64,000 bases of DNA from assembly GCA_947649575.1 (NCBI GenBank), contig CANSRZ010000002.1:68049-132048 (forward strand). The letters run 5' to 3'. A model generated the notes under the pieces. That model had not been told where the DNA came from. It saw nothing but the letters and a program-made list of their open reading frames with translations, and ran no database searches. Positions 4,503 to 35,603 of this stretch are shown piece by piece; within the stretch, counting starts at the first letter, position 1, and every line of letters starts with the position of its first letter. The stretch comes from an uncultured Clostridia bacterium. GTDB lineage: Bacteria; Bacillota; Clostridia; Christensenellales; UBA1242. The translations under genes and the position numbers were made by a program.

Positions 4503-4528
4503 CCCCGCCTCCTTTTGTTTTCTTCTAT

Positions 4529-4647
4529 CTTCTTTTTTGAAAAAAAGAAGCAAAAGAAAACTATTAAACGTTTTAATAAATTCGATTTAACTTTAATTTT
4601 CTTTATATTAAACTCGCGTATTTAATAAAGCGTTTAAGAATTTTTTT
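4529..4647 (+). repeat. Composite palindromic element copy a (P1 hairpin + CAAAAGAAAAC + long hairpin + T-run), plus-strand orientation
   Basis: P1 is CTTCTTTTTTGAAAAAAAGAAG at 4529-4550 and the linker CAAAAGAAAAC at 4551-4561. The stem TTAAACGTTTTAATAAAT (4564-4581) pairs with ATTTAATAAAGCGTTTAA (4620-4637), followed by T7. About 120 nt align with 8130-8250. Confidence 0.8.
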
Positions 4648-4685
4648 ATTATCTAAAATAAGAAACTTTCACTTAACATTTCGAA

Positions 4686-4782
4686 AAATTGGCAAATATC
4701 TTGAACGAAGATATGATATAAAAGCCAATTTAAGAAATGTTAATAGTTAAAAGTTTTTTGTTTCTTTTTTTCAAAAAAGAAA
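4686..4782 (-). repeat. Composite palindromic element copy b (minus orientation), directly after the typA stop; terminator-like
   Basis: P1-like palindrome TTTCTTTTT/AAAAAGAAA at 4761-4782, 17 nt after the typA stop. Nested hairpin AAATTGGC (4686-4693) / GCCAATTT (4724-4731) with inner ATATCTT/AAGATAT. Confidence 0.7.
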
Positions 4783-4798
4783 AGTAATACAGTAAAAA

Positions 4799-6631
4799 TT
4801 AAGCCTCGCCGCGTAAAATCTTGCCACGCTCGCGCATACGCATGTTGTGGTCAAGGATAATCTTTCTTATTCTCATGCTCTTTGGCGTAACTTCCAAAAT
4901 TTCATCGTCAGCCAAAAATTCAATAGCGTCTTCAAGGCTAAGCTTCTTAGGTGGAGTTAATCTAAGCGCCTCGTCAGAGCCAGACGCACGGCAGTTTGAA
5001 AGATGTTTTTTCTTGCAAACATTAACAACAATGTCATCACCCTTAGGGTTCTGCCCGACAACCATGCCTGCGTAAACAGGAACGCCTGCCCCAATAAACA
5101 AATCGCCACGCTCTTGTGCATTGAAAAGCCCATATACAATTGCCTCTCCGCTTTCATGAGCAATAAGTGATCCATATTCTCTGCGATTGATTTCGCCTTT
5201 CCATGGCTGATAATCTTCAAAAATAGAGTTGATAACGCCCTCGCCTCGTGTATCAGTCAAAAGTTCGCTTTTAAAGCCAAACAGCCCACGCTCTGGAATA
5301 AGGAATTCCATTTTCATACGGCTTCCATGAGGAGTCATGCCAATAAGTTCGCCTTTGCGCACGCCCATTTTCATCATGACTGTACCCGTGCAGTCCTCTG
5401 GCACGTCAAGGAAGAGTCTGTCAATAGGCTCGCACTTAACACCATTAATATTTTTAATCAAAACCTTAGGCATTGAAACTTGAAATTCATAACCATCACG
5501 TCTCATGTTTTCAATAAGGATAGAAAGGTGCATTTCGCCACGACCTGAAACTTGAAAGCGTTCTGCTGTGTCGCCGTCCTCAACTTTGAGTGATAAGTCT
5601 TTAACTGCTTCTTTATAAAGTCTTTCTCTAATATGACGAGATGTAACATATTTGCCCTCTTTGCCAGCAAATGGGCTGTCATTAACCATAAAGGTCATCT
5701 CAACAGATGGCTCAGCAATTTTAACAAATTCAAGAGGTTTGATTTCTGCACCGTCACAAATTGTGTCACCAATCTGAACATCAGTCAAGCCTGCCACACA
5801 AACGATTTCCCCAATAGGAACATTTTCAACAGGAACACGTTTAACGCCCTCAAACACAAACAAACTTACAATTTTTGAACGAACTTGCTTGCTCTGGTCA
5901 TGATAATTGCAAAGCACAACATTTTGTCCAACGCTAAGCTTTCCTTGTGTAAGTTTGCCAACAGCAAGTTTGCCAACATAATCATTATGCTCTGCGGAAG
6001 ATATAAGCATTTGCGCTGGCTTATCTGAGTCTCCCTCTGGTGCTGGAATATGAGAAATGATTGTTTCAAAAAGTGGCTTCATGTCTATGCCTTTCTCATC
6101 TTTGTTTGTAGATGCAATGCCTTGTCTTGCAGAAGCAAAAACGAATGGCGAATTAAGTTGTTCTTCGTCAGCATCAAGTTCAAGGAACAGTTCAAGCACT
6201 TCGTCAATAACTTCGTCAATTCTGGCGTCAGCTCTGTCAACCTTATTGACAACCACGATAACTTTAAGCTTAAGCGCCAGAGCTCTTTCAAGCACAAACC
6301 TTGTTTGAGGCATTGGTCCCTCATATGCGTCAACAACCAAAAGCACTCCGTCCACCATTTTAAGAACGCGCTCCACTTCGCCGCCAAAGTCAGCGTGTCC
6401 TGGCGTGTCTATAACGTTGATTTTTACGTCATTATAAAGGCAAGAGCAATTCTTTGACAAAATAGTAATCCCTCTTTCTCTTTCAAGTGCATTGCTATCC
6501 ATAACACGGTCTTCCACCACTTGATTATCGCGGAAAACACTACCCTGTTTTAAAAGCGCGTCAACAAGACTTGTTTTGCCGTGGTCAACGTGAGCAATGA
6601 TTGCAATGTTTCTAATCTTTTCGTTTTTCAT
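4799..6631 (-). CDS. typA: Translational GTPase TypA/BipA
   Basis: [43 protein letters not shown]. The ORF-track N-terminus (6679) is probably an over-extension, so the start is set at ATG 6631. Confidence 0.93.
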
Positions 6632-6730
6632 AATAATAAAGTCCTTTTGAAAATAAAGTTTAATCGTTCCCTCTATCAATTAACTAATAAAGTATAACAC
6701 ACTTTAACGAATAATACAAGCCATGCAACA

Positions 6731-6756
6731 AAAAAAGTGCCGAGTGGCACTTTTTT
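6731..6756. terminator. Bidirectional intrinsic terminator downstream of rdgB
   Basis: AAAAAAGTGCC-gagt-GGCACTTTTTT. Confidence 0.75.
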
Positions 6757-6795
6757 ATTTTGTATCTATAACATTTTTTGTAATTTTATTTGTTT

Positions 6796-7395
6796 TTATA
6801 GTCTTTTCCCAAGGTCTTTCTTCAACATTTCTACTGCTCGCCCACGATGAGAAACTCTGTTTTTCTCTTCATTTGTTGCTTCTCCAAAAGTTTTGCCAAG
6901 TTCAGTTGAATAGAATAGGCAATCATAACCAAAACTTCTGTCGCCGATTTCATGTTCAGCAATATTGCCAAATGTTTTGCCCTCATAATGTTTATAACTT
7001 CCGTCCTCATTCATTTTGACTATGCAACATAACATATGCGCTGATCGATCATCTTTATCTTTGAGTGCGTTTAACAATTTGCCTCTATTTGCATCGTCAT
7101 CATGATAACCTGCAAACCTTGCAGAATAAATTCCCGGCGCTCCGCCAAGAGCATCAACACAAAGACCGCTGTCATCAGCAATAATTGTAGCGCATTCACC
7201 CTTTTCTTTCAAAAATTTATAAACTGCTTTTGCTTTGATAAGTGAGTTTTCTAAAAATGTTGTTCCGTCTTCTTCAATCTCTTCAAAAAAGCCAATGTCT
7301 TCAAGTGCTTTTACTTCATAGTCTGGAAACATTTCCTTGAATTCTTTGATTTTATGGTCATTGTTTGATGCTAACACCAAAATTTTATTTTGCAT
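6796..7395 (-). CDS. rdgB: Non-canonical purine NTP pyrophosphatase (RdgB/HAM1 family)
   Basis: 199 aa. LASNNDHKIKEF, DSGLCVDALGGAPGIYSARF, FGYD, SHRG motifs. Confidence 0.88.
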   Translation of the reverse strand: MQNKILVLASNNDHKIKEFKEMFPDYEVKALEDIGFFEEIEEDGTTFLENSLIKAKAVYKFLKEKGECATIIADDSGLCVDALGGAPGIYSARFAGYHDDDANRGKLLNALKDKDDRSAHMLCCIVKMNEDGSYKHYEGKTFGNIAEHEIGDRSFGYDCLFYSTELGKTFGEATNEEKNRVSHRGRAVEMLKKDLGKRL

Positions 7396-7406
7396 AATTT
7401 TCTCCT

Positions 7407-8120
7407 TTAATTTAATAATTTATTTAACTCTTTACATTTTCCTTCATCCATTTCTGGCACATCGTTAAGACGATATGGAATTTTGAGGTCACTGTATTTA
7501 TGCACGCCAATTGTTTTGTAAGGAAGCAGTTCTATTTTTTCAATATTTGCATAGTTTTTCAAGAAATCTTTAAGTGCAAGCACGCTTTCTTCAGTGTCGT
7601 TTATGCCTGGCACAATAACTTGTCTTATCCACATTTTTTTGTTTAGTTTTTGGCATAAATTCAAAAAATCAATTGTTTTTTGCATATTTTGTCCTGTCAA
7701 ATCTTTAAACAGTTGATTATTGCACGCTTTGATATCCAGAATAACAAGGTCGACCAACTCCAAGATTTCCTCTTCCTTGCCTGTTCCATGCCCTGCGGTG
7801 TCAAGGCAAGAGTGAATATCATTCTTCTTGCACAATTTCAGGCATTCAATCAAGAAATCAGGTTGAAGAAGTGGCTCACCGCCTGAGAAAGTCACACCTC
7901 CATCTTTGCCATAATAGTTTTTATATCTTAGAATTTTATCGATGAGTTCTTTTGGGGTGAGTTCAATTTTCTTTTCACCAATGTTCCACGTTTCAGGATT
8001 ATGGCAATATTTACATCTAAACTGACAGCCCTGCAAAAAGACCACGAACCTTATCCCTGGTCCGTCAACTAGCCCCATTGTATCAAAACTTGAAATATTC
8101 CCTTTTATCATTTTTAGCAT
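7407..8120 (-). CDS. pflA: Pyruvate formate-lyase activating enzyme (radical SAM)
   Basis: 237 aa. GPGIRFVVFLQGCQFRCKYCHNPETW (CxxxCxxC), GGVTFSGGEPLLQ. Confidence 0.92.
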   Translation of the reverse strand: MLKMIKGNISSFDTMGLVDGPGIRFVVFLQGCQFRCKYCHNPETWNIGEKKIELTPKELIDKILRYKNYYGKDGGVTFSGGEPLLQPDFLIECLKLCKKNDIHSCLDTAGHGTGKEEEILELVDLVILDIKACNNQLFKDLTGQNMQKTIDFLNLCQKLNKKMWIRQVIVPGINDTEESVLALKDFLKNYANIEKIELLPYKTIGVHKYSDLKIPYRLNDVPEMDEGKCKELNKLLN

Positions 8121-8129
8121 TTTTCATCT

Positions 8130-8250
8130 CTTCTTTTCTTTTAAAGAAAAGAAGCAAAAGAAAACCTTTAACGCTTTAATAAATCCGCTTCAATATTATA
8201 TTGCTTTATAACTAATTTGCGTATTTAATAAAGCGTTAAGTGATTTTTTG
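8130..8250 (+). repeat. Composite palindromic element copy c (plus orientation) in the pflA leader
   Basis: P1 is CTTCTTTTCTTTTAAAGAAAAGAAG at 8130-8154 and the linker CAAAAGAAAAC at 8155-8165. The stem TTTAACGCTTTAATAAAT (8167-8184) pairs with ATTTAATAAAGCGTTAA (8223-8239), followed by T6. Confidence 0.8.
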
Positions 8251-8298
8251 TTTTCTAAATATATTTTAGTTTTTTATAAGTTATTAAAAGTAAATTTC

Positions 8299-8378
8299 AT
8301 TTGCGATGCGAAGATAAGAAACTTATCGAGTATCGCAAATTATTTTTCTTTTGGATACTTTTCTTGAAAGAAAAGTAT
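8299..8378 (-). repeat. Composite palindromic element copy d (minus orientation), directly after the helicase stop
   Basis: P1 variant ATACTTTTCTTGAAAGAAAAGTAT at 8355-8378, 7 nt after the stop at 8385. Nested hairpin ATTTGCGAT (8299-8307) / ATCGCAAAT (8332-8340) with inner GATAAG/CTTATC. Confidence 0.75.
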
Positions 8379-8384
8379 CACAAG

Positions 8385-11300
8385 CTATTTGCTAGCCTTT
8401 TCAATTTCTTTGACTATTGAACTGATAACTGCCGTTGGATTATGCCACCAATCACGGCTCCAAACGCGCATAACTTTCCAGCCTTTTGATTTCAAGAATT
8501 GATTTCTAAACACATCGCGCTCTAAAACTGAATTTGACGATTTTGTCACTTCCTCATCGGTTTCAATTCCTAAAAGATATTTATCCTTTTTCTTGTCATA
8601 AACAGCAATAGAAATCTTGCTGTTAGAATTGCCCAAGTTAAGGTCTGTTTTATAGCCCAATTTATTAAGTTTTTCAGCAATCTGGTTTTCAATAGGAAGC
8701 AGGCTTAATAATCTTGGCTTTGTCATAACGCTTGTGCCAAAACTATTTAAAATTGTTTTAACCTCTTCTGTATTGCCATTAGAAACCGCTCTTACATAAG
8801 TCAAATAGCTACGCAAAAGTTTTGGTCCAACATGCTTAGCAGAATCAACTTTAAGTTCTTCTGGCTCTATGCTTGTAACAACATAAATTTTTTGTTTAGC
8901 ACGAGTAATTGCAACATTCAATCTATTTTCGCCACCCTCGTTTGAAAGCGAGCCAAATGTTGCATTAACTTTGCCAAACTCATTTTTAGCATATCCAATT
9001 GAGAAGATAATTATGTCACGCTCATCACCTTGAACATTTTCAAGATTCTTTACAAACAAGCTTACATCTTCACCGTTTTCAACACGATTGCATTCTTTTA
9101 AATAAAGATTTCTGAATTCAACGTCTTCAAAACATTTTTGCTCAATAAGTTCTTCAATACAGTTTTCTTGCTCAACGTTAAATGTGATGACCCCTATTGT
9201 TTCTTTATTCTTGCGGGTTTTGAAAATAGTCTTTATCAACTCGACAACACGTTTGGCTTCTGTTTCATTTCTACGATCTCTCCAAACGCCAGGCACAAGC
9301 ACTCTTTCAATCGGCTTATGTTTGATATTTTTTGAAACATTTGGAGCAATTTGCAAACTCCCAGAATAGAAAGCCTTATTTGAGAAATCAATAAGTTCCT
9401 CATTTTTACTTCTATAGTGATAAGTAATATTTGAGCTTGAATATCTTGAAACCGCCAAATCAAGCAAAGACTCCACTTCAAGCGCAGCCTGAGTTGTATA
9501 ATCAAGGTCATCTTCCACGCCTGCACCCATATAGCGTTTCATAAATGTAGTTGTTGGACGAAGCTGCTTTGCATCACCCGCAACAACAATTCGATTGCCT
9601 CTATAAATTGACGGAATAGTGTTTTCAATAAACACCTGAGAAGCCTCATCAAACAAAACTATATCAAACAAATTTCGCTTTAGTGGCAAAATTGAAGAAA
9701 CATTTTCAGGCGACAACAGCCAGCAAGGGAAAAGCTTGAAGAGATAATCACCATAAACTTCCGTTGTTTTTCTGATAGACCAGAAGTTCTGCTTTTTTGC
9801 AATTTGATAAAGATAATCTTTGCTTGCAGTGCTTCCGTCAATCATCTTTTTATATTCTTCATTAAATGTCTGCATAGCAATTTTCTTGCTTACTTCATTC
9901 AATTGTGCTTTAAGGCTAACAACTCTTGCTCTGATGTTTTCAAAGTCAACAGTGGCAGACAAAATGCTGTGTTTTTCCTCCTCACACTTAACAATTTCGT
10001 GATAAATTCTAACAGGCAAAACTGCTTTAAGCACTGCCATAAATTTAGGGAAAGTGCTTCCGTTTTCATAAGCAAAATCAAGCACATACTTTTGATTTTC
10101 ATCCAAGTTTTTAAGAATTCTGTTTGTGTCGCTAAGTTTAACATAATTTTCAACCGCCCACAAAAGCAAGCGTAAAATTTGATTATTGCCGTTAAGCAAG
10201 CCCTCAACTGCAAGAAGATATCCACTTTCTGTTAAAATATTTTGCAAGAAAGTGTAATCTTGAAGATATTCGTCAACCGCTTGCAAGGTTTCTTTAACCT
10301 CTTTTTTAACAATGCTTTCTTTTCTAAGCATATTGATTTTAGCAAACGGATAAAGTGGAAAAACAAAACAACTTGTTTTCAAAAAGTTTTCTTGCTTTGG
10401 ATATTCATATTTAGCAATCAATTTGATAAGAGCGTTGCTGTTTATATCGTTTTTAACTTCGTTATAATATGTCAAAACCTGTCTTGCATATTTGTATTTT
10501 TGCGTGTCGAACAATGCTCGTCTTGAAGCAAACAATCTTTGAAGTTTAGCCTGAGATTCAGCCACAACATGCACGCTTAAATTTTCTTTCAAGGCGTCAA
10601 CAAAAGGATTTTTCTTTTTCTCTTCAACAAAGTTGAAATAAAGTTCTGCCTTATTTTTCTCTTCCAATATACTGAGTGCCGAAACAAGCTCTTGATAATT
10701 TAAAGACATGATTTTTTTGTCTTTTTGCATTTCTTTATAAAGTGCATATTCTGTGCTTTTCTTGCCAATCTTATAAGAATTGTAATACATTTCTTGAAGT
10801 GAAAGCCCGAACTCTGTTTTTTCATTCAAGCAGTTTGAAATAGTATTAAGGTTTTCTATTTCATAATTTAAACGCTTTTCAAGGTCAACATATTCTTTAT
10901 ACAACTTTTCATCATAAGAAGATTTCATCACTTTTTCATGAAAGTCTTGACAACGCTTATAAAATTCGTGCTTCTCTTTCTCGGCGTCAACAATAAACAT
11001 TGCCTTTTCGTTAAGATTTGAAAGACGATTATAAACAACTTCCAATGCCGCTTTCTTTTGAGAAACAACAAGCACTTTTTTGTTCTTGCAAATAGCATCC
11101 GCAATCACATTAACAATTGTTTGGCTCTTTCCTGTTCCAGGAGGTCCATAAATCACCATATTGCCTTTCTCGTTAACATTTCTCACAACTTGCTCTTGCG
11201 CATAGTCAACGTTATTGATAAGGAACAAATCATTGCATTTGGTCTGTTTATGCTTGATTTTGCCTGCATTTAAAAGTTCATTGATAGAATCATTTGTAAG

Positions 11301-12137
11301 ATGTTTCTTTTCAAGCGCTGAGTAATCTTGATAAATGGAGTTTGCCAAACTGCATCTTGAAAGCAAACATAAATTTTTAACTTCAAGAGTATTTGCCGTT
11401 CCTGGCTCGCCAAATTTATTGAATGAATAAAGTTTTTTGTCGTTTTTATAAGCTATCTTTATGCCAAATTCTTTAAGATAGTCAATCAAGCCTTGGATAG
11501 AGCCAAATCTTGCTTTGATTGAAGAAAACTCCATTTCCATATCTTGTAAATTGAGGTGCTTGCTGTTTGCAATTGCAAGCATAAGCGCTTTATTAAGTTG
11601 GATTTGCTCGCCATATTTCAAGCAAATATTGATATTAGAGTCATCCAAAACATCAATCTCAACAGGGAACATCAACAGCGGAGCTTTGAATGCCAAATCG
11701 CGCACATTGCCATACACAAAAGGATAGCACAAGAATAGTTCATATCTGCCTGTTTCTTTTTCAATCTCTTCAATTTCACGTTTAAGGGTTTTTAAGTTAT
11801 TGCCCTCTTGCTCGTAAACTTTTTTGATAAAATTACGTTTTTCATTTTCATATTTTTGCTTTTCACTATCATCGCTGAAAGTTTTGGCAGGATATTTTGC
11901 AGAAACATTGTTTGCGCTTGCAATCAAATCTTTCATGCTTTTGCTGAAAATGTTGAAAGGAACTGACTTTCCACTCATTAAGATATCCAAAAATTCATCA
12001 GTTTTTTCACCGTTGCAAAACAAAATACGACCTATGTCATAGCCGTTTTTCTTGTTAAAACTTTTCAGATAAAGGCTTCTGTTTTTTCCGCTTATTTCAA
12101 TAAGTCTTTCTTTGTAATATGTATAAATACTTTTCAT
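8385..12137 (-). CDS. Large SF1 (Upf1-like) helicase with DUF4011-like N-terminus and C-terminal Vsr/DUF559-like PD-(D/E)xK nuclease module (Hhe-like)
   Basis: 1250 aa. Motifs: YGPPGTGKSQT (Walker A), FDEASQ, YHYRS, VQGDERD, RLNVAITRAK. C-terminus: ISIAVYD..LGIETDE..RDVFRNQFLKSKGWKVMRVWSRDWW. RBS is GAGG 7 nt upstream. Confidence 0.85.
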   Translation of the reverse strand: MKSIYTYYKERLIEISGKNRSLYLKSFNKKNGYDIGRILFCNGEKTDEFLDILMSGKSVPFNIFSKSMKDLIASANNVSAKYPAKTFSDDSEKQKYENEKRNFIKKVYEQEGNNLKTLKREIEEIEKETGRYELFLCYPFVYGNVRDLAFKAPLLMFPVEIDVLDDSNINICLKYGEQIQLNKALMLAIANSKHLNLQDMEMEFSSIKARFGSIQGLIDYLKEFGIKIAYKNDKKLYSFNKFGEPGTANTLEVKNLCLLSRCSLANSIYQDYSALEKKHLTNDSINELLNAGKIKHKQTKCNDLFLINNVDYAQEQVVRNVNEKGNMVIYGPPGTGKSQTIVNVIADAICKNKKVLVVSQKKAALEVVYNRLSNLNEKAMFIVDAEKEKHEFYKRCQDFHEKVMKSSYDEKLYKEYVDLEKRLNYEIENLNTISNCLNEKTEFGLSLQEMYYNSYKIGKKSTEYALYKEMQKDKKIMSLNYQELVSALSILEEKNKAELYFNFVEEKKKNPFVDALKENLSVHVVAESQAKLQRLFASRRALFDTQKYKYARQVLTYYNEVKNDINSNALIKLIAKYEYPKQENFLKTSCFVFPLYPFAKINMLRKESIVKKEVKETLQAVDEYLQDYTFLQNILTESGYLLAVEGLLNGNNQILRLLLWAVENYVKLSDTNRILKNLDENQKYVLDFAYENGSTFPKFMAVLKAVLPVRIYHEIVKCEEEKHSILSATVDFENIRARVVSLKAQLNEVSKKIAMQTFNEEYKKMIDGSTASKDYLYQIAKKQNFWSIRKTTEVYGDYLFKLFPCWLLSPENVSSILPLKRNLFDIVLFDEASQVFIENTIPSIYRGNRIVVAGDAKQLRPTTTFMKRYMGAGVEDDLDYTTQAALEVESLLDLAVSRYSSSNITYHYRSKNEELIDFSNKAFYSGSLQIAPNVSKNIKHKPIERVLVPGVWRDRRNETEAKRVVELIKTIFKTRKNKETIGVITFNVEQENCIEELIEQKCFEDVEFRNLYLKECNRVENGEDVSLFVKNLENVQGDERDIIIFSIGYAKNEFGKVNATFGSLSNEGGENRLNVAITRAKQKIYVVTSIEPEELKVDSAKHVGPKLLRSYLTYVRAVSNGNTEEVKTILNSFGTSVMTKPRLLSLLPIENQIAEKLNKLGYKTDLNLGNSNSKISIAVYDKKKDKYLLGIETDEEVTKSSNSVLERDVFRNQFLKSKGWKVMRVWSRDWWHNPTAVISSIVKEIEKASK

Positions 12138-12274: not shown

Positions 12275-12361
12275 AACAAAGCCTTTCGCATAAGTAAAAG
12301 ACTTTAAGAAAGGCTTTGTTTTTAGTTTTCTTTTGCTTACTTTTCTTTAAAAGAAAAGTAA
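12275..12361 (-). repeat. Composite palindromic element copy e, directly after the pflB stop (P1 + linker + intrinsic terminator)
   Basis: P1 is TTACTTTTCTTTAAAAGAAAAGTAA at 12337-12361, 7 nt after the stop. Linker GTTTTCTTTTG at 12325-12335. Terminator stem AAACAAAGCCTTTC/GAAAGGCTTTGTTT at 12275-12321. Confidence 0.8.
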
Positions 12362-12367
12362 TGTGAT

Positions 12368-20152: not shown

Positions 20153-20710
20153 ATTATTTATAAAAATTGAATATTTGTTGATATACCCATAGCGCTTATA
20201 ACAAATAAGTTTGCTTTTGAAGAAATAAAAATTCGCAAACAGTCAAAGCATGATAGTTTACGTTACAAGTTTTATATTTGCATAATACTTTCTTTAAATA
20301 ACAAACTAACTTAATAGTTTTTATCACAAAACAAAAAAAATAATATGATGATATTATAAACAAAAATATTGATTTTTGAAACAAAAAATACAATCCTTAA
20401 AAAACGATTATTTTTGCCATAATTTTTACAAAACTAAATGAGTCAAATGCCATTTTTCGATGAATTTACATTGAAAAAACATGTTTTAATAATATTATTC
20501 GACCTTTTTAGACAATTTTTACAATGTAATTAACTATTAAAGATTATGTTTTGATTACTTTTTTAAAATAGTCTTTATTTTGTTGGTTTTTGTCGAATTT
20601 TTGTAAAAATATAAAGTATATTGAAAATATTTTTAAAAATTTCAAAAATCGCTTTACTTTTTTATCTTAATATTTTATACTAACCAAGTCACATAAAGGA
20701 GGTGACAAAA

Positions 20711-21172
20711 ATGCAAAAAAGTAGCTTTATTATACAAACAACCACAAGCAATACATTACTAGCTTCAGGTTTACCAGCACACTTACAAGGTTTTAACTTT
20801 GCAAAAGATGCAGTTATCCTTTCAATCAAAAAACCAAATTCATTACAACATTTAACAAAAGAGCTTTATCCAGAAATAGGCAAGAAGTACGGAGTTTCAG
20901 GAAGCATCGTAGAAAGAAGCATACGCAGTAGCATTGACTATGCATATGACTCTGAATCGTTATATGGATTAAACGATCTTTTAAATATACAATTTTTTAC
21001 AGGCAAAAACAAACCGTCAAATGGTTACTACATAGCTCTCATTGCCGAAATAGTTAAAAACAAAATTTTAGATATCATCACAAACAACACTTCAGAGGGT
21101 CAGAACAGTCGCACACAAGCTTTAGATTTTATACAAGAAGAAATGGCGGACTTTATTGCAGAAAACGCATAA
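20711..21172 (+). CDS. Standalone Spo0A C-terminal (DNA-binding) domain protein, no receiver domain
   Basis: 153 aa from ATG 20711 (AAAGGAGG upstream). GLPAHLQGFNFAKDAVILSI...LTKELYPEIGKKYGVSGSIVERSIRSSIDYAY...KPSNGYYIALIAEIV parallels the Spo0A effector domain (..GVPAHIKGY.YLR.AI...T..LYP.IAKK..T..SRVERAIRHAIE..KPTN.EFIA). Confidence 0.75.
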   Translation: MQKSSFIIQTTTSNTLLASGLPAHLQGFNFAKDAVILSIKKPNSLQHLTKELYPEIGKKYGVSGSIVERSIRSSIDYAYDSESLYGLNDLLNIQFFTGKNKPSNGYYIALIAEIVKNKILDIITNNTSEGQNSRTQALDFIQEEMADFIAENA

Positions 21173-22130: not shown

Positions 22131-22146
22131 TGTTCCACGTGAAACA
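22131..22146. promoter_or_regulatory. parS site 1 (perfect consensus)
   Basis: TGTTCCACGTGAAACA equals the Firmicute parS consensus TGTTNCACGTGAAACA. Confidence 0.9.
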
Positions 22147-22182
22147 TTTTCTAATAATACGGGAACAGATTTTTAGCAAAAT

Positions 22183-22198
22183 TGTTTCACATGAAACA
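22183..22198. promoter_or_regulatory. parS site 2 (one mismatch)
   Basis: TGTTTCACATGAAACA. Confidence 0.75.
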
Positions 22199-22233
22199 TT
22201 TTTCCTTTAAAACCACACTCGTTTATTCTAGTT

Positions 22234-22249
22234 TGTTCCACGCGAAACA
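22234..22249. promoter_or_regulatory. parS site 3 (one mismatch)
   Basis: TGTTCCACGCGAAACA. Confidence 0.75.
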
Positions 22250-22384: not shown

Positions 22385-23326
22385 TTAATGTCTTTTATTG
22401 TAATTTTTCAAATCTTCAAGTGTTATTTCTTTCTTTTTAAGCAATTCTACCAAATCCGCTAATCTATCCAAATCATCTCTTGAATAATAGTCAATATAAA
22501 TTCTGCCTTTATTATCATTTCCAATAGCCGAGACTTTAGTGGCAAAGATTCTTTGCATTTCATTTACAAGTTCTTTCAGTTCAAGAGATTGCTCAACAGG
22601 CTTTGCGGTAACTGTTCTATTAGGAGATGTATAATTTTTTACAGCTTTTTCCAAGTCTCTAACACTTAACTTGCCTGACGCAGCAGAATTTGCCAATTTT
22701 GTCTGCAAATTAATATCATCAATCACAACCAAACTTCTTGCGTGACCTGCAGAAAGCTTACCGTTTTCTACTAACTTAACAACATCTGGAGTTAATGTTA
22801 ATAACCTTAAAGTATTTGCTACGTTTGAGCGGCTTTTTCCAATTCTTTCCGCAACAGTTTCTTGTGTAAGCTTATATTCATCCATCAATTGCCTGATCGC
22901 TCTTGCGGCTTCAATAGGATTTAAATCCTCTCTTTGCAAGTTCTCAATCAAAGCGATTTCTTTAACTTGTTTTTCTGTATAATTCTTTACAATAACTGGA
23001 ACTACTTCTAAACCTGCAATTTGAGAAGCTCTCCATCGTCTTTCACCAGCAATGATCATATATGAGCCATCTTGCTCTTTATTAACCACAAGAGGTTGAA
23101 TAACTCCATGTACCTTAATAGAGCTTGCAAGATCTTGCAAAGCTTCTTCATCAAAGAATTTTCTTGGCTGATTTGGATTAGGTCTTACATCTGCGACTTT
23201 AACTTCCATAACACCGTCATTCTTTTTTTGAGGTTTTTCTACAGTTATATTTTCATTACTAACGTCATTATCATACATGCCAAATAATGCTTCAAGACCT
23301 CTTCCTAAACCTTTTTTGTTACTCAT
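22385..23326 (-). CDS. parB: Chromosome partitioning protein ParB/Spo0J
   Basis: 313 aa. NPNQPRKFFDEEALQDLASSIKVHGVIQPLVV, GERRWRA, HTH ..TQETVAERIGKSRSNVANTLRLL. Confidence 0.95.
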   Translation of the reverse strand: MSNKKGLGRGLEALFGMYDNDVSNENITVEKPQKKNDGVMEVKVADVRPNPNQPRKFFDEEALQDLASSIKVHGVIQPLVVNKEQDGSYMIIAGERRWRASQIAGLEVVPVIVKNYTEKQVKEIALIENLQREDLNPIEAARAIRQLMDEYKLTQETVAERIGKSRSNVANTLRLLTLTPDVVKLVENGKLSAGHARSLVVIDDINLQTKLANSAASGKLSVRDLEKAVKNYTSPNRTVTAKPVEQSLELKELVNEMQRIFATKVSAIGNDNKGRIYIDYYSRDDLDRLADLVELLKKKEITLEDLKNYNKRH

Positions 23327-24146
23327 CTTTATTCACCCTCCTCAAATTAATTTTAGTGTCTTTTGTTATAGTTTTATAACTAACCTTATTTCTATCCAAA
23401 AATTCTTCTGCCAAACTTAAATATGCATCTGCCCCTTTTGAAGCAGGCTCATATACCACAATCGGCTCTCCATGACTTGGCGCTTCCGCCAATCTGATAT
23501 TTCTTGGAATATAAGTAAAGAACACTTTTTTGCCAAAGAATTTTAAAATCTCATCGCTAACCTGGTTCGTAAGATTAGAGCGTTTATCTTTCATAGTCAT
23601 AACAACGCCCTCAATGTCAATCTTTGGATTAAGTTGGAATTTAATCAATCTGATTGTATTCATAAGCTGAGTAATTCCAACGAGCGGATAATATTCACAA
23701 GGCATCGGAATAATAACGCTGTCACTTGCAGTCAAAGCGTTAACAGTTAGCAAACTTAAAGATGGTGGCAAATCCAGCATAATGAAGTCATATCTATCTC
23801 TTAAAGGATCAAGAATGCCTTTAATAATCTTCTCTCTTTGTGGCATTTGAACCATATCAAGTTCCGCTCCTGACAAATCAGACGTCGATGGCAATATATC
23901 TAACCCCTCAATCAAAGTTTCTTTGATAACCTCATCAACAGAAGTATCGCCTGAAATTAAGTCATACATTGTTTTTAAATCATCAGTTTTGTCAATGCCA
24001 AGACCTCCTGTCGCATTGCCCTGAGCATCCAAGTCTACAACCAATACTTTTTTGCCCATAACTGCCACATATGCAGCCAAGTTTACACAAGTTGTAGTTT
24101 TGCCAACTCCACCTTTTTGGTTGGCAAATGAAATAATCTTTCCCAT
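23319..24146 (-). CDS. parA: Chromosome partitioning ATPase ParA/Soj
   Basis: 275 aa. Deviant Walker A NQKGGVGKTT. 8-nt overlap with parB. Confidence 0.95.
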   Translation of the reverse strand: MGKIISFANQKGGVGKTTTCVNLAAYVAVMGKKVLVVDLDAQGNATGGLGIDKTDDLKTMYDLISGDTSVDEVIKETLIEGLDILPSTSDLSGAELDMVQMPQREKIIKGILDPLRDRYDFIMLDLPPSLSLLTVNALTASDSVIIPMPCEYYPLVGITQLMNTIRLIKFQLNPKIDIEGVVMTMKDKRSNLTNQVSDEILKFFGKKVFFTYIPRNIRLAEAPSHGEPIVVYEPASKGADAYLSLAEEFLDRNKVSYKTITKDTKINLRRVNKDE

Positions 24147-26155: not shown

Positions 26156-26174
26156 TTTCAACCTCCTTACCTCT

Positions 26175-26201: not shown

Positions 26202-26247
26202 GCAAATAGTAAAGAAAATAAAAACACCTTTTTAGGTGCTTTTTTTG

Positions 26248-28821: not shown

Positions 28822-28926
28822 TTTTTATCCTTTTGTTTTTTACTCTTTGAATATTATACATCAAAACATTGCAAAATCAAAATCCTTTGATAGTTATTTA
28901 AATAAAAAACAAGAATGACTCTTGTT

Positions 28927-29508: not shown

Positions 29509-29522
29509 AAAAGCCTCCTTCT

Positions 29523-30863: not shown

Positions 30864-30995
30864 GACGATATTATAGCATAATGAAACACAAATTGCAAGA
30901 TAAAAACAAATTGATAAAAGTTTTATTTTTAATAAAATCAAACAAGTAATTATTGTTTTAAATTTTTATTTTAAATAATAAAAGTTAAAGTCAAA

Positions 30996-31086
30996 ATAAA
31001 AGCCTTTATTAACTTTTAAATAGTTAATAAAGGCTTTTATTTTTAGTTTTCTTTCTCTTCTTTTCTTTAAAAGAAAAGAAGAGAAA
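30996..31086 (-). repeat. Composite palindromic element copy f, directly after the jag stop
   Basis: Perfect 35-nt palindrome TTTCTCTTCTTTTCTTTAAAAGAAAAGAAGAGAAA at 31052-31086, 4 nt after the stop. Terminator stem ATAAAAGCCTTTATTAAC/GTTAATAAAGGCTTTTAT at 30996-31040. Confidence 0.8.
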
Positions 31087-31089
31087 ATT

Positions 31090-31920
31090 CTATCTATCTT
31101 TATATTCTTTTGGAAAAACTATTACATATCTATGAGGCTCTGTGCCTTTTGACAAAGTTGTAACTCTATCGTCATCTTGAAGGGCTGTGTGAATAATTCG
31201 TCTCTCAGCTGGCTTCATTGGCTCAAGCTTATAATATCTTCCGCTTTTTGCAACTTTGCTTGCAATGCGCTTTGCAGTTGCTGTCAAACTTTCTTCACGT
31301 TTAACACGATAGTTGTCAATATCAAGCAAAAATCTCTTTTCTTGTCTGCCAGTAACTGCTTGGAAAATGTTTGTAAGCGCATAATAAGCTTCTCCTCTGT
31401 GACCAATTGCTTCGCCAAGATCGTCGCCAATAACTGAAAAAGTTTTGAACTTTTCATCTTCTTCAACAGAAATTTGAACTTCTTTGCCAAGCGCTTTAAA
31501 ATAACCTGTCAAGAATTCGATTGGATCTAAAACTTTTTCTTCTTTTGATTTAGAATATTTTTCTTTATTGGTTTCTTTTTTAATTTCTTTACTTTCTTGT
31601 TTAATCTCTTCAGATTCTTTTAAGATTTCTTGACTTTCCTGTTTTATTTCAGTAGTATCTTTTTCAATCTCTTCGCTTTCTTTTTTAATTTTTGCTTTTT
31701 CTGCTAAAATTTCTTCTTTTTCTTCCTGTCTAAAACTTTTTCGTTTCTCATATTTTTCTTTAGCGTCTTCAGAAATAGAAACCAATACTTTTGCTTTTTT
31801 AAAAAGTCCGCCTTCACTTAAAATTTTTATATCAACGTCTTCTCTTGGTGCTTTAAGTTCAAGCAGTGCATTTTCGATTGCTTTTTCTATTGTTTTTCCA
31901 GTGCTTTCAACTGATAACAT
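31090..31920 (-). CDS. khpB: RNA-binding protein Jag/KhpB (Jag_N, KH, R3H)
   Basis: Start moved to ATG 31920 (MLSVESTGKTIEKAIENAL). E/K-rich linker. C-terminal R3H ERRIIHTALQDD. Confidence 0.88.
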   Translation of the reverse strand: MLSVESTGKTIEKAIENALLELKAPREDVDIKILSEGGLFKKAKVLVSISEDAKEKYEKRKSFRQEEKEEILAEKAKIKKESEEIEKDTTEIKQESQEILKESEEIKQESKEIKKETNKEKYSKSKEEKVLDPIEFLTGYFKALGKEVQISVEEDEKFKTFSVIGDDLGEAIGHRGEAYYALTNIFQAVTGRQEKRFLLDIDNYRVKREESLTATAKRIASKVAKSGRYYKLEPMKPAERRIIHTALQDDDRVTTLSKGTEPHRYVIVFPKEYKDR

Positions 31921-31936
31921 TTTATCCCCCTTAAGT

Positions 31937-33265: not shown

Positions 33266-33525
33266 TTACTTTCTCCTTTTAAATTAATTGGCAGAAAATC
33301 ATAACCTGACTGACCATTAGGCTTACATCTTGCAATTCTCTTTAATCCTAAAACGCTTCCTTTAAAAATCCCAAACTCGCCAACTGCTTTAATAAAATAA
33401 TTGGAACAGCTTGGAACAAATCGACAAGTGTGAGGAAGCAGTGGTGAAATACAAAATTTGTAAATCCACACTGGAATAAGCAAAAGAACTTTAAACGGAA
33501 ATATAATTATTTTAAAAAATTTCAT
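33253..33525 (-). CDS. yidD: Membrane protein insertion efficiency factor YidD
   Basis: 90 aa. YKFCISPLLPHTCRFVPSCSNYFIKAV...GLKRIARCKP. Confidence 0.9.
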   Translation of the reverse strand: MKFFKIIIFPFKVLLLIPVWIYKFCISPLLPHTCRFVPSCSNYFIKAVGEFGIFKGSVLGLKRIARCKPNGQSGYDFLPINLKGESKWLF

Positions 33526-33536
33526 AATTTTCTCTT

Positions 33537-33899
33537 TCAGTCAGAATTTGCTTTGTTAAAAACATATTCAACTTGCTTTTTAAGGTCTGAAAATTCAAGT
33601 TCAGCAGTTCCCTCTCTTGCCAGCAAAACATAATTTTTGTAAGGCTTAACAAAATCGCCATTTCTAACAATTTCTCTAAGCCTGCGTTTTAACAAATTTC
33701 TTTTATTAGCCTTGCCGTGCTTTTTTGAGATAGAATATCCAATTTTATAACTTTGGAACTTACTGTTAACCTCATAAAGAGTAAAATATTTGCTTGATGT
33801 TCTTTTGCCTTTGCGATAAATGTAAGCAAAGTGCTTTCTTAGTTTTAGTCTGTGGTCAGGTTTCTTTTGTTTTTTAAGCAGAGAGTTTCTTTCTTCCAC
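33537..33899 (-). CDS. rnpA: Ribonuclease P protein component
   Basis: About 115-120 aa. ..[17 protein letters not shown].. and [14 protein letters not shown] (RNR-type motif). There is no ATG in frame. A GTG at 33899 would overlap rpmH by 26 nt, so the start is uncertain. Confidence 0.85.
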
Positions 33900-34008
33900 G
33901 ATTTCTTCTTCTTTTTAAAACATTTCTTCCACCAGTAGAACGCATTCTTTCTCTAAATCCGTGAACTTTGCTTCTTTGTCTTTTCTTAGGTTGGTATGTT
34001 CTTTTCAT
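33874..34008 (-). CDS. rpmH: 50S ribosomal protein L34
   Basis: Below the ORF-track size cutoff. Manual translation gives [54 protein letters not shown] upstream. Confidence 0.95.
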
Positions 34009-34123
34009 GTTCTTCTCCTTGTTTAGTCAAATTCTTTTTTTAACGAGGTTTTCAATAGTTTGTAATAAGTGAATAAGGAAAACCAAACATGCATACTCTC
34101 AATTAAAAAAAGTTTACGGGATA

Positions 34124-34152
34124 ATTATAAATTAAAAAATCTAATTTGTCAA
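34124..34152 (-). promoter_or_regulatory. Consensus promoter for rpmH-rnpA
   Basis: Minus strand reads TTGACA (34152-34147), 17 nt, TATAAT (34129-34124). Confidence 0.7.
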
Positions 34153-34307
34153 CCACAATCAGCAAACTAATAATAAAATATTTTTTAAGTTGTGCAATTA
34201 TTTTTCTAATAAGCCATAGTTTTTGTCTATTTATGTCGCTAAATAAAAATAACTCTTGCAAAATTTGCTAAGTTTTGATATAATAAAATTGTAACTTAGG
34301 AGGTTTT

Positions 34308-34841
34308 ATGAGTATTACACAAGTAACAGGCAATAAAGTGTATTTTGCAAAACTTAAAGAAAATGCAATTATTCCTAGCAAAGCAGAAGAAAATGCTGGC
34401 TATGATATTTATGCTTGCTTTGACGAAGATTTTATTTTGCTTAAAAAATTTCAAACAAAACTTATTCCAACTGGAATAGCATGGGCTTCTAGTAAAGAAT
34501 ATTATATGCAATTCTATGAACGTTCTTCAACAGGTTCAAAAGGAATAAAGGCTAGTGCAGGAGTTATTGACAGCAGTTATCGTGGAGAATTTAAAGTTGC
34601 AATATTTAATGCAACATGTAAAAATTTGATATTTACTTATCTAGACAATCCACAACTTTTTGAAAAATATAAAGAATTTGCAAACGAAGACGAGTATTTA
34701 ATATATAATTGCAAAAAAGCAATTGTTCAAGGAGTTATTCACAAAGTTAACAAAATGGACGTAGCAGAAATTTCTTATGATGAATTAATGAACATTTCTT
34801 CAGAACGCGGAGCAGGCGGCTGGGGCAGTTCAGGTAAATAA
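34308..34841 (+). CDS. dut: dUTP diphosphatase
   Basis: 177 aa. AGYDIYA, AGVIDSSYRGE, C-terminal ERGAGGWGSSG. TTGCAA-17-TATAAT promoter plus AGGAGG RBS upstream. Confidence 0.88.
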   Translation: MSITQVTGNKVYFAKLKENAIIPSKAEENAGYDIYACFDEDFILLKKFQTKLIPTGIAWASSKEYYMQFYERSSTGSKGIKASAGVIDSSYRGEFKVAIFNATCKNLIFTYLDNPQLFEKYKEFANEDEYLIYNCKKAIVQGVIHKVNKMDVAEISYDELMNISSERGAGGWGSSGK

Positions 34842-34907
34842 ATAGGTGGCAAACGCCACTTTTTTATATCTAACAATTTTTATAAAAATAAAAAATAGAG
34901 CAATGTT

Positions 34908-35366
34908 TTATTGCTCTATTGGTTTTTCAAGTGATTGTTCCACTTTTTTATAAGTTTCATTATAATAATCAAGCACAGTTTCAATATCATTGCCTGATAA
35001 AAGATTTATTGAAAGTATGTTTTTAGTTGCTCCACCTTCCATTTTTATAGGATGAATTTTACCAATTAAAACATGAATAGTGCAAACTTGAGGACATAAG
35101 CCAATTGTTTCACTTGGAATATATTTTTCGCAAAGAGTATTTATAAATATTTTGCAAAAATCTAGATAATCTATACCTTCCAAATGAATAGCTAAGTCAC
35201 TATCAGATAAAGTCATTGCTGGTGAAAATTTTGCTTTACCATTATGATTTAAAAGATAAACCTGAGAAAACTTGTTTCTATAATCATCACTTGCTAAATG
35301 TTCCTCTATCTTTTGAAGTAATTCATCAATTTTTTCTTTTATTATTAATTCTTGTTTATTTTCCAT
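34908..35366 (-). CDS. Hypothetical protein (predicted leaderless mRNA)
   Basis: 152 aa from ATG 35366. No SD sequence. A consensus promoter ends 6 nt upstream of the ATG. Confidence 0.55.
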   Translation of the reverse strand: MENKQELIIKEKIDELLQKIEEHLASDDYRNKFSQVYLLNHNGKAKFSPAMTLSDSDLAIHLEGIDYLDFCKIFINTLCEKYIPSETIGLCPQVCTIHVLIGKIHPIKMEGGATKNILSINLLSGNDIETVLDYYNETYKKVEQSLEKPIEQ

Positions 35367-35372
35367 AGAAAA

Positions 35373-35401
35373 ATTATAACACATAAATTTAATATTGTCA
35401 A
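35373..35401 (-). promoter_or_regulatory. Extended -10 consensus promoter placed for leaderless transcription
   Basis: Minus strand reads TTGACA (35401-35396), 17 nt ending TGT, TATAAT (35378-35373), then TTTTCT, then ATG. Confidence 0.65.
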
Positions 35402-35516
35402 TCATTAATTTAAAAATTTCTCTCTACAGTGAAAATAAAAGGTTATAGCGATTTTGCAGCCAGATTCTGCGTGATTATTTTTCTTTTATAATTTTAATTA
35501 AAATAAATAAAAAGTT

Positions 35517-35603
35517 AACAAAAGCCTTTTTGATTTTAATAATAAAATTCAAAAAGGCTTTTGTTTAGTTTTCTTTTGCTTCTTTTCTTTAAAAGAAAAG
35601 AAG
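35517..35603 (-). repeat. Composite palindromic element copy g, directly after the dnaN stop
   Basis: P1 is CTTCTTTTCTTTAAAAGAAAAGAAG at 35579-35603, 5 nt after the stop. Linker GTTTTCTTTTG at 35568-35578. Terminator stem AACAAAAGCCTTTTTGA/TTCAAAAAGGCTTTTGTT at 35517-35565. Confidence 0.8.

Follow-up and report, generated by a model that had tools for sequence, protein, structure and literature searches.

An invariant 19-nt palindromic core, an outer stem that varies only by compensation, an oriented purine tail and a second hairpin make up a repeat unit that is present in seven copies in the window (the whole 64-kb stretch of DNA analysed) and recurs across species of uncultured Clostridia, where it faces the nearest coding sequence (CDS) and lies preferentially beside replication and repair genes. 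By analogy, the element may belong with REP and NTS as a new family of short, non-coding repeats whose hairpin is recognised by a sequence-specific protein, an assignment that we favour tentatively, at somewhat short of an even chance.

Structure and Conservation of the Repeat Unit

Each unit follows the same order, namely the 19-nt core, three outer base pairs, a tail (CAAAAGAAAAC-TA) and a second hairpin of variable sequence. The core and outer pairs form a nearly invariant hairpin of ~25 nt, hereafter P1, which together with the tail spans ~40 nt. The core, CTTTTCTTT-W-AAAGAAAAG, is identical in 22 of 22 aligned copies, and the three outer pairs change only by compensation, with 98.3% of the cells paired in the 22-copy alignment and 20 double-change cells, compared with 6.3 in shuffles and near 0 in slid controls. 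At least three complementary outer bases, of eight triplet types, are present in 26 of 29 copies (permutation mean 6.1). G-U wobble is nearly absent, with one U-G, at an outer pair, in ~240 P1 stem cells. The compensatory outer stem and the strict invariance of the core go beyond what a previous, sequence-only reading of this DNA had described. The purine tail is conserved on one side of P1 only, and the bases 5' of P1 vary; since P1 is followed by this tail and not by a U-run, it is not itself a terminator. The length of the P1 centre ranges from 0 to 2 nt within the clade and reaches 6-7 nt (GTTCAC) in abundant metagenome variants, which suits a stem-loop and not a dimer operator with fixed spacing.

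A covariance model (CM) built from 22 copies and run unfiltered over all 64 kb recovered exactly the seven sites previously reported (30.4-69 bits). The next match reached only 15 bits (E ~0.4), so the window holds no further copies and none at 36-64 kb, in agreement with the seven composite copies in 31 kb of the sequence-only reading and its lack of copies in the 36-64 kb half. The exact palindrome CTTCTTTTCTTTWAAAGAAAAGAAG occurs three times in the window (8130, 31057 and 35579), with 0 occurrences expected from 100 shuffles. The neighbouring genes typA, SF1 helicase, pflB, jag, dnaN and pflA were identified by Pfam and NCBIfam. The components of the seven copies are the following:

4526..4565, + strand: variant P1 (CTTCTTTTTT-GA-AAAAAAGAAG) with linker CAAAAGAAAAC and TA (CM, 47.8 bits)
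4566..4647, + strand: long Y-type second hairpin (TTAAACG.TTTAATAAAT...ATTTAATAAAGCGTTTAA), then T-run (fold)
4686..4742, - strand: second hairpin of the typA copy (AAATTGGC...GCCAATTT, with CGAAGATA in the loop) (sequence, alignment)
4749..4785, - strand: degenerate P1 with linker (CAAAAAAC) (CM, 30.4 bits; typA stop ~14-16 nt before)
8127..8169, + strand: canonical P1 with linker (exact match; CM, 65 bits)
8166..8250, + strand: Y-type second hairpin and T-run (folds)
8299..8342, - strand: X-type second hairpin (TTTGCGAT..GCGAAGATAAG..ATCGCAAA) (alignment, fold; conserved in L006 and L010)
8339..8381, - strand: P1 variant GATACTTTTCTTTCAAGAAAAGTATC with CAAAAGAAAAA (CM, 41.2 bits; helicase stop 6 nt before)
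12275..12320, - strand: pflB intrinsic terminator hairpin (AAAACAAAGCCTTTC...GAAAGGCTTTGTTTT) (fold -31.3 kcal/mol, z -5.5)
12321..12364, - strand: P1 (TTAC...GTAA outer stem) with linker (CM, 61.6 bits; pflB stop 6 nt before)
30996..31041, - strand: terminator hairpin behind jag (fold -44.3 kcal/mol, z -10.2)
31042..31084, - strand: P1 (6-bp outer stem) with linker variant AGAAAGAAAAC (exact P1; CM, 62.9 bits; jag stop 8 nt before)
35517..35563, - strand: terminator hairpin behind dnaN (fold -35.7 kcal/mol, z -7.3)
35564..35606, - strand: canonical P1 with linker and TA (exact P1; CM, 69 bits; dnaN stop 4 nt before)

P1 at 4526..4565 faces the start of a small ORF and the dnaB operon (DnaB by Pfam), with ~30 nt to the likely ATG at ~4499, and P1 at 8127..8169 lies 9-12 nt upstream of the start codon of pflA (PflA being TIGR02493, above cut-off). 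On the - strand, 8166..8250 reads as a hairpin followed by GUUUUCUUUUG, upstream of pflA. The second hairpins at 4566-4647 and 8166-8250 are homologous, forming a 129-nt direct repeat of 71% identity. No clear strand bias relative to replication was observed, with five copies against two in one replichore. Read depth was 0-11 over 4-15 kb in the 'RNA?' runs with the pflB region, and contigs break at the repeat.

Position Relative to Genes and Terminators

In all ~27 oriented copies P1 points to the nearest CDS, at 4-30 nt from a stop or 5-60 nt from a start, and the tail points to a hairpin. The sequence-only reading had placed P1 at 4-17 nt past a stop codon in five copies; these gaps stand (4, 8, 6, 6 and ~14-16 nt), but the stop-codon rule is only half the picture, as about half of all copies precede a start. 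Similarly, the two copies facing the opposite way (4529 and 8130) do form the convergent pairs that had been noticed, but both border on the start of the gene that follows. Conservation of the tail does not depend on its orientation to transcription (~14 stop-side and ~13 start-side copies), which speaks for recognition of the DNA or for a layout of hairpin, spacer and TA resembling HUH or GIY-YIG substrates.

The variable hairpin had been interpreted as an intrinsic terminator in the five stop-side copies. This applies to the pflB, jag and dnaN copies, whose second hairpin is a G+C-containing hairpin followed by a U-run; in the helicase and typA copies no U-run follows the second hairpin in the sense direction, which leaves three canonical sense terminators among the five. 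The stem base AAAGCCTTT/AAAGGCTTT, described as common to three terminators, is visible in the sequence. In the minimum-energy folds, the tail pairs with the U-run behind the second hairpin. Many P1 sites occupy the junctions of classically co-transcribed pairs (ruvA/ruvB, pcrA/ligA, smc/ftsY and pflB/pflA), and some copies sit between convergent genes (L137 and L093). Promoter-like sites were found upstream of ruvB (L011; TTGACA-17-TATGTT) and dnaE (L003 and L004). A promoter inside the unit, with TA+GTTT as the -10 element, was considered as a general feature and rejected, good matches being confined to these three loci.

Replication and repair genes account for ~40% of the flanking genes and for 9-10 of the ~22 independent P1-side genes, with dnaN, dnaE, the dnaB operon, uvrB, pcrA, ligA, ruvB, smc, udg and the SF1 helicase as neighbours. 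A binomial estimate of this excess gives p ~1e-5 to 2e-4, taking a background of 7-10% of genes and a small neighbour sample drawn from an exact-pattern search. Other P1 neighbours handle nucleotides (gmk, folD and the pflA-Ham1 operon). In the window, dnaA and recF have no copy according to the covariance scan, and recA, lexA and uvrA were not seen among the neighbours of the examined copies. Both the bias towards replication and repair genes and the rule that P1 faces the CDS are new here.

Distribution and Turnover among Relatives

Apart from the source genome, six or more assemblies of uncultured Clostridia contain the repeat unit, so the motif does recur elsewhere; copies were located in five GTDB species assemblies, in L137 and in the 55%-GC contigs L082 and L093, one of which has three tandem units. 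Related assemblies contain one to five strict matches each. At some orthologous sites the copy is retained, and at others it is missing. The pflB copy has an orthologous P1 in L001 (362-386), though the terminator sequence is entirely different, and between L003 and L004 the dnaE-upstream module shows 98% identity despite a different upstream neighbour gene. The window and L137 share the dnaN copy, which L134 and L136 lack, and L002, with a TypA of 92% identity, has no typA pair. This gain and loss of copies had also escaped the sequence-only reading.

Comparison with Known Repeat Families

None of the 4227 Rfam models reached its gathering threshold on the element, with tRNA-Met as the only family reaching it in the window, and E-value scans of the element returned only chance microRNA and leader matches, all below threshold. 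Searches of plasmid and phage collections returned low-complexity chance matches inside genes and nothing else, and the repeat sequence was not found in the searchable literature, which bears out the view that the element belongs to no known repeat family.

The likeness to REP/BIME elements of Enterobacteria and Pseudomonas, served by RAYT (TnpA-REP), was proposed in the sequence-only reading and holds for position and pairing. Like REP/BIME, the element is a short extragenic palindrome next to which a non-palindromic flank is conserved; copies of both lie just past stops and between genes, singly or in inverted pairs or clusters, and both are specific to a clade or species. However, P1, with its invariant 19-nt core, is a near-perfect palindrome rich in AT, a second hairpin or terminator invariably accompanies it, about half of its copies precede starts, and no GTAG-type 5' tetranucleotide was found at the foot of its hairpin. 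A search for a RAYT/IS200-type gene, suggested as a possible cognate, yielded no Y1/HUH transposase and no Ssn-type GIY-YIG candidate in the window or in ~190 kb of gene-listed related loci; REP membership is therefore unproven and the resemblance one of analogy. A small single-domain GIY-YIG protein (cd10448) was likewise absent from the window. A weak GIY-YIG match of 186 aa on the prophage contig L141 looks phage-borne. The prophage genes of L141 are the same as those at the right end of the window, and L141 continues past the last common gene.

P1 also resembles the NTS/dRS3 and Ssn-related motifs, which are cut as single-stranded DNA by the GIY-YIG nuclease SsnA (PMC11893778), in having a hairpin core with oriented flanks, in being nearly always intergenic and in clustering at particular genes. 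NTS are recognised with a cut a few nt from the hairpin, and P1 might be handled in the same way. In contrast to NTS, no match to the SRM pattern HGTCWYN(0-2)YYVSBRHN(0-5)WNVSBRGN(0-2)RNCYNB (PMC11893778) was found in the window by regular-expression search, and P1 lies near genome-maintenance genes, whereas NTS cluster near surface-protein genes. The convergent pairs recall MITEs such as the Neisseria Correia elements, with 36-nt terminal inverted repeats enclosing ~180-230 bp between genes and with terminator-like and possibly promoter-like sequences. Unlike MITEs, their interiors are only partly related (~71% alike over one half only), many copies are single, and no target-site duplication was recognised at the copies. 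The second hairpin with the tail as A-tract and a downstream U-run is the standard form of a bidirectional intrinsic terminator, although the additional invariant 25-nt palindrome and invariant A-tract are neither needed nor normal there.

Proposed Origin and Alternative Explanations

For a REP/NTS-like repeat we infer a protein partner, a level of action (DNA rather than RNA), a mode of spread and an effect on expression. In favour of this explanation are the seven copies and their occurrence across species, the invariant core with its compensatory stem, the variable centre, the tail conserved in both orientations, the orientation rule, the persistence of P1 or its module beside differing terminators or neighbour genes, the turnover between relatives and the k-mer depth in metagenomes. 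P1 is probably recognised by some protein encoded elsewhere, and the recognised form would most likely be a single-stranded DNA hairpin with its tail, for which REP-RAYT, the IS200/IS605 ends with TnpA, and NTS-SsnA could serve as models. Such recognition would hold the core invariant and permit the gain and loss of copies. Copies may have docked tail-first on a pre-existing hairpin, usually an intrinsic terminator, so that the palindrome would land between the hairpin and the nearest CDS. Once in place, the unit would be co-transcribed, the tail providing the terminator A-tract on one strand and the U-tract on the other, and the P1 hairpin would form a few nt past the stop or just before the ribosome-binding site of the neighbouring cistron, where it could serve to mark transcript ends, insulate them and reduce expression. 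The replication and repair bias counts against this explanation, as a selfish-repeat model does not predict it. So do the lack of a candidate enzyme in the window and the ~190 kb of gene-listed related loci, the lack of a target-site duplication and the lack of a clear strand bias relative to replication. In addition, a perfect palindrome could be maintained by template-switch correction without selection.

It is possible, though rather doubtful, that P1 instead acts in the mRNA as a boundary element bound by an RNA-binding protein or RNase, capping, after processing or termination, the upstream cistron at its 3' end or the downstream one at its 5' end, and setting intra-operon expression ratios through selective processing and stabilisation or through ribosome stalling at the stop. 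Being palindromic, P1 gives the same RNA hairpin in either orientation; it lies 4-16 nt past stops and 5-60 nt ahead of starts, with many sites inside the co-transcribed pairs, and transcripts from the promoter-like sites of ruvB and dnaE would begin within the tail and have P1 at their very 5' end. In E. coli, translation of the upstream gene is reduced by REPs located less than 16 nt from its stop (PMC12306157), which is consistent with such a role. However, the tail is conserved both ways even though the RNA would read CAAAAGAAAAC in one orientation and GUUUUCUUUUG in the other, the near-zero wobble and the invariant stem sequence exceed a demand for mere pairing, and the promoter matches are not general. 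A DNA operator or RNA recognition hairpin coordinating genome-maintenance and nucleotide-metabolism genes, as in a non-LexA damage or replication regulon of this clade, would fit the proportion of replication and repair genes on the P1 side, the nucleotide-handling neighbours and the operator-like position of the start-side copies. We consider it unlikely, as half the copies lie past stops and some between convergent genes, dnaA, recF, recA, lexA and uvrA are missing from the neighbours described above, sites turn over among close relatives, the variable length of the centre does not sit easily with a dimeric operator, and the gene sample is small. The Firmicute LexA box is a CGAAC-N4-GTTCG palindrome in the promoters of recA, lexA and uvr genes; the sequence of P1 is unrelated to it.

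Site-specific recombination, with P1 and its tail as att-like or inverton-like sites for the insertion, excision or inversion of genes or promoter segments, is suggested by the Hhe-like anti-phage helicase between pflB and pflA, which is flanked by two P1-tail units in direct orientation, while relative L001 has the pflB-pflA spacer alone with a convergent pair. The inverted pairs at 4529-4782 and 8130-8378, the synteny break upstream of dnaE, which coincides with the module edge, and a tyrosine recombinase encoded at 46672-47616 point the same way. Nevertheless, we judge this quite improbable: most copies are single and beside housekeeping genes, the recombinase is an ordinary Xer-like protein, and no inverted or excised form was demonstrated. 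Metagenome joints, considered as proof of strain-level presence/absence or of helicase loss, were rejected because their short side is 21-45 nt and other repeat copies explain them. Integron attC sites carry R''/R' core sites (RYYYAAC/GTTRRRY) and form a cassette array with an IntI gene; no core-site match was found on reading the sequence, no integron integrase scored above cut-off, and the copies are scattered, unlike such an array. Least probable, with only a slight chance, is a DNA-uptake-type signal or a plain terminator variant or low-complexity coincidence. Like the element, Neisseria DUS and Pasteurellaceae USS form inverted pairs of short motifs behind genes, in terminators, but they are abundant as single copies within genes, whereas the half-site 9-mer AAAGAAAAG occurs 18 times, ~11 of them within P1, and is not over-represented outside the palindromes (same-letter permutations, 5-13 each). 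Sequence-specific DNA uptake is not known in Firmicutes. The genome-maintenance bias is shared with DUS, which are enriched in such genes according to Davidsen 2004, as cited in PMC11893778. As for a trivial origin, the element is AT-rich and beside terminators, but most terminators in the window lack P1, and the invariance spans species into 55%-GC genomes; the shuffles, the compensatory stem and the covariance scan refute a plain terminator variant or coincidence.

It is also improbable that P1 and its tail are the site recognised by a dedicated trans-acting system through which genome-maintenance operons of this gut-Clostridia clade are marked or coordinated. Such a system could be a non-LexA replication or damage regulon working through a DNA or RNA hairpin, or a Gram-positive counterpart of DUS or NTS-Ssn that could bias both transformation and recombination near certain genes. 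Descriptions of hairpin repeats whose partner protein is known (REP-RAYT, NTS-SsnA) come chiefly from Gram-negative bacteria; the present family, clean and invariant in sequence, is from uncultured gut Clostridia, follows simple rules, can be found with a sharp covariance model and shows a preference for replication and repair genes that was not expected. A partner protein, should there be one, could be traced by phylogenetic profiling and might turn out to be a hairpin-specific nuclease, transposase or regulator of a new type. Should the element act at the RNA level, it would amount to a portable module setting intra-operon transcript boundaries in organisms that cannot yet be grown.

Occurrence in Metagenomes

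The source genome is that of a mouse-gut Clostridia bacterium. In mouse-gut metagenomes, P1 k-mers are 10-25x deeper than their flanks. Among the matches listed, about a quarter of the bare 19-nt-core metagenome matches have CAAAAGAA nearby. The checked group of bare-core matches is archaeal (PolD, proteasome and NFACT); these matches, treated as a separate, possibly convergent family, do not count as proof of a cross-domain element.

Copy Number and Anatomy of the Repeat Unit

The unit formed by the palindrome P1, its conserved flank (the tail) and a variable second stem-loop (hairpin 2) represents a genuine repeat family, conserved and not described before; its structural rules are clear, and its bias towards certain genes is intriguing. 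The window contains three exact copies of the 25-nt palindrome, against none expected. A covariance model was built on an alignment of 22 copies, taken both from the window and from related loci; run unfiltered across the whole window, it recovered the same seven sites that the sequence-only reading had proposed, with scores of 30–69 bits. Since everything else in the window scored at most 15 bits, no hidden copies are present there, and the absence of the element from the 36–64 kb half, also claimed by that reading, was reproduced.

The oriented consensus is N3-CTTTTCTTT-W-AAAGAAAAG-N3'-CAAAAGAAAAC-TA, followed by the second hairpin. The 19-nt core is unchanged in 22/22 aligned copies, and the outer three pairs take eight forms (CTT/AAG, TTA/TAA, TTT/AAA, TTG/CAA, GTG/CAC, CTA/TAG, TAA/TTA, and ATA/TAT), with complementarity kept in 26 of 29 copies, where permutation gives a mean of 6. 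The covariation test gave 98.3% of cells paired and 20 double-change cells versus 6.3 in shuffles, while the slid controls collapsed. Within the clade, the P1 centre measures 0–2 nt; P1 variants with a 6–7 nt centre in place of the single base are plentiful in mouse-gut metagenomes (depth up to 50), with the central inserts GTTCAC, TGTTCAC, GTACAC, and TTTTCAA (window 35590/31070, metagenome contigs). Fold energies were -9.7 kcal/mol for P1 alone and -27 to -44 kcal/mol for whole units (z-scores of -4.4 to -10). In the predicted structures, pairing between the tail and the U-run 3' of hairpin 2 is frequent, which makes the tail the A-tract of a bidirectional terminator; on the opposite strand, it provides the U-tract (UAGUUUUCUUUUG). 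The proposal that the variable hairpin is an intrinsic terminator needs qualification, as the second hairpin is not a canonical sense terminator in either the typA or the helicase copy. One second hairpin, named 'X' (TTTGCGATGCGAAGATAAG...ATCGCAAA), has a conserved loop and is shared by three species, in which it lies beside different genes:

Window 8303–8342, 'X' hairpin
Related contig L006, ~4270–4310, 'X' hairpin
Related contig L010, ~1262–1296, 'X' hairpin

Placement and Neighbouring Genes

The gene names assigned from sequence alone (typA, SF1 helicase, pflB, jag, mnmE, dnaN, and pflA) agreed with Pfam and NCBIfam, and P1 was found shortly after stop codons as described, with a stop-to-P1 gap of 4–16 nt. 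The two copies taken to face the opposite way, at 4529 and 8130, are real copies, but there P1 adjoins the start of the following gene, namely a small ORF followed by dnaB in the first case and pflA in the second. Both an orientation rule and a neighbour rule had been missed. Without exception among the ~27 copies with an assigned orientation, P1 points towards the closest CDS, with a stop codon at 4–30 nt or a start codon at 5–60 nt, and the tail faces the hairpin, the next gene on that side lying 38–311 nt away. Stop-side and start-side copies are roughly equal in number. In the latter, the upstream gene is terminated by hairpin 2 together with the reverse tail, and P1 is located between this terminator and the ribosome-binding site.

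The P1-side genes include dnaN (twice), dnaE (twice), the dnaB operon, uvrB, pcrA, ligA, ruvB, and smc, genes for a uracil-DNA glycosylase and an SF1 helicase, as well as gmk, folD, and the pflA-Ham1 operon; genes on the hairpin side include xseA, ruvA, and a NUDIX gene. The remaining neighbours are typA, pflB, jag, ftsY, proS, a U32 peptidase, and a STAS protein. Counting orthologous sites once, replication or repair genes account for 9–10 of ~22 P1-side genes, an excess with a binomial estimate of ~1e-5 to 2e-4 assuming a 7–10% background. The indication of a real bias is strong but provisional, because the sample is small and was collected by exact-pattern search. Separately, the jag coding region contains a 21-nt unit repeated six times in tandem (window 31572–31724), encoding a 7-residue protein repeat.

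Distribution among Genomes

In a single scan of species-representative genomes, core and tail were found together at 13 loci, spread over five assemblies of uncultured Clostridia. The window's own species is not among these (best match, 75% DNA identity), and the same loci also hold extra degenerate copies and convergent pairs. A sixth assembly (contig L137) carries the unit 3' of dnaN. The same extended sequence is borne by two contigs of 55% G+C, L082 and L093, the former encoding a LytR_cpsA_psr protein typical of Gram-positives. On L093 (1455–1660), one stop codon is followed by a tandem array of three P1-plus-tail units and then by a common terminator, beyond which a mirrored P1-like unit follows the convergent gene. 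The window's organism is present in mouse gut metagenomes, according to sequencing-run matches, and in such metagenomes the depth of P1 k-mers is 10–25x that of their flanks. Plasmid and phage collections gave chance matches only, and the literature search found no paper with the P1 sequence.

The bare 19-nt core occurs in many environmental contigs among the matches listed, a quarter of which, again among those listed, have CAAAAGAA near the core; the group checked among them was archaeal. In five archaeal contigs (L014, L070, L103, L116, and L120), the palindrome lies 3 nt 3' of the gene for the DNA polymerase D large subunit, followed by CCAAAAGAA in all except L014, where the tail has diverged. 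It also adjoins proteasome and NFACT genes, forms the end of a CRISPR leader whose array contains a duplicate of it (L034), and lies ~70 nt 5' of a group II intron (L035). A T-run present on both strands would, in archaea, alone serve as a two-way terminator. The archaeal palindrome is considered a separate, possibly convergent family.

Conservation and Turnover

After pflB, P1 has a TTAC/GTAA outer stem common to the window and the related contig L001 (PflB 79% identical), although the adjacent terminators are wholly unlike. Two species with 89% identity between their DnaE proteins share a module 5' of dnaE that is 98% identical, despite a different upstream gene (a NUDIX gene in one species and whiA in the other). 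The typA pair is missing in the closest relative, L002 (TypA 92% identical), and the dnaN copy is missing in L134 and L136, two further contigs compared with the window. In these, an unrelated ~50-nt motif, 'Q' (CCAAATGYTG..ATTATC..TAAAAATCAAAYATT), separates the stop codon from the terminator downstream of both dnaN and jag, filling the slot of P1 in relatives without P1 there; 'Q' is not present in the window. L136 also retains CAAAAGAAAAC-TA and a terminator without P1. The motif was located as follows:

L134 6906–6955, motif 'Q'
L136 7253–7300, motif 'Q'
L136 12228–12275, motif 'Q'
L137 12261–12300, motif 'Q'

In the window, two units in direct orientation flank an anti-phage-type helicase gene located between pflB and pflA:

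8385–12137, minus strand, helicase of 1250 aa (DUF4011/AAA_11/AAA_12/MTES_1575)

This protein resembles the anti-phage Hhe, ProA, and PDC-S37 (E-values of 1e-85 to 1e-165, short of the full-length cut-offs), and its gene splits the usual pflB–pflA pair; in L001, pflA is directly 3' of pflB with only a spacer between them.

Possible Nature of the Element

The core is the same from 33% to 55% G+C with nearly no wobble, which points to sequence recognition by a trans-acting factor; a hairpin needed for its shape alone would drift by compensation, the kind of drift visible at the three outer pairs and in hairpin 2. A centre of variable length fits a stem-loop better than a dimer site with fixed spacing, and the tail is kept in both transcriptional orientations. 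In its order of hairpin, 11-nt spacer, and TA, the unit is similar to what hairpin-specific ssDNA enzymes act on, such as the substrates of HUH transposases in REP and IS200/IS605 systems, or those of SsnA on NTS (PMC11893778). Based on core invariance, the variable centre, tail conservation, and this likeness, we rank first, tentatively, a putatively protein-recognised hairpin repeat of the REP/NTS kind: a trans-acting protein would recognise the repeat, which would dock on terminators, and the docked unit would then be co-transcribed as a boundary hairpin. By analogy, the element may work like REP/BIME or NTS, yet it cannot be assigned to either, because neither a RAYT nor an Ssn gene was found among the annotated genes of the window and the related loci, P1 lacks the GTAG head of REP, and the SRM pattern of Ssn has no match in the window. 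An Rfam scan returned no match, so an Rfam family was rejected, in accordance with the earlier statement that the sequence matches no known repeat family. The LexA box and the attC site were also rejected as identities of P1.

A purely RNA-level boundary element is the nearest competitor, though rather unlikely. [quoted passage not shown] That P1 marks a regulon of genome-maintenance genes appears improbable, and a role as recombination sites even more so. Least credible is that P1 serves as an uptake signal or is a trivial feature; the P1 half-site is not over-represented.

Genomic Setting of the Window

The window, part of a 196-kb contig, has a G+C content of ~33% and contains a bacterial replication origin:

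37031–38392, minus strand, dnaA
35608–36726, minus strand, dnaN
36903–37039, cluster of five DnaA boxes (0–1 mismatch) in the dnaA–dnaN spacer

The DnaA-box cluster is likely oriC, since the sign of the GC skew flips nearby (34–38 kb). Three parS-like sites ~52 nt apart (TGTTCCACGTGAAACA and two one-mismatch copies, 22131–22249) are found just 3' of parB (22385–23326) and parA (23319–24146). Two small proteins consist of Spo0A_C only, without a receiver domain (20702–21172, plus strand; 45483–46004, minus strand), and L134 carries a third stand-alone gene for this C-terminal domain. The presence of such stand-alone proteins is indicative of Clostridia. A Xer-like tyrosine recombinase (46672–47616, plus strand) combines Phage_integrase and SAM-like domains and scores below the XerC, XerD, and XerA cut-offs. 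A prophage occupies ~55600–64000, with an integrase (55620–56747), a CI-like HTH/S24 repressor (57171–57779), and DUF6291. Contigs matching it also encode Sipho_Gp157 and SSB, and one contig, L141, carries its genes and, beyond the last common gene, a weak GIY-YIG match and an N6/N4 methylase.
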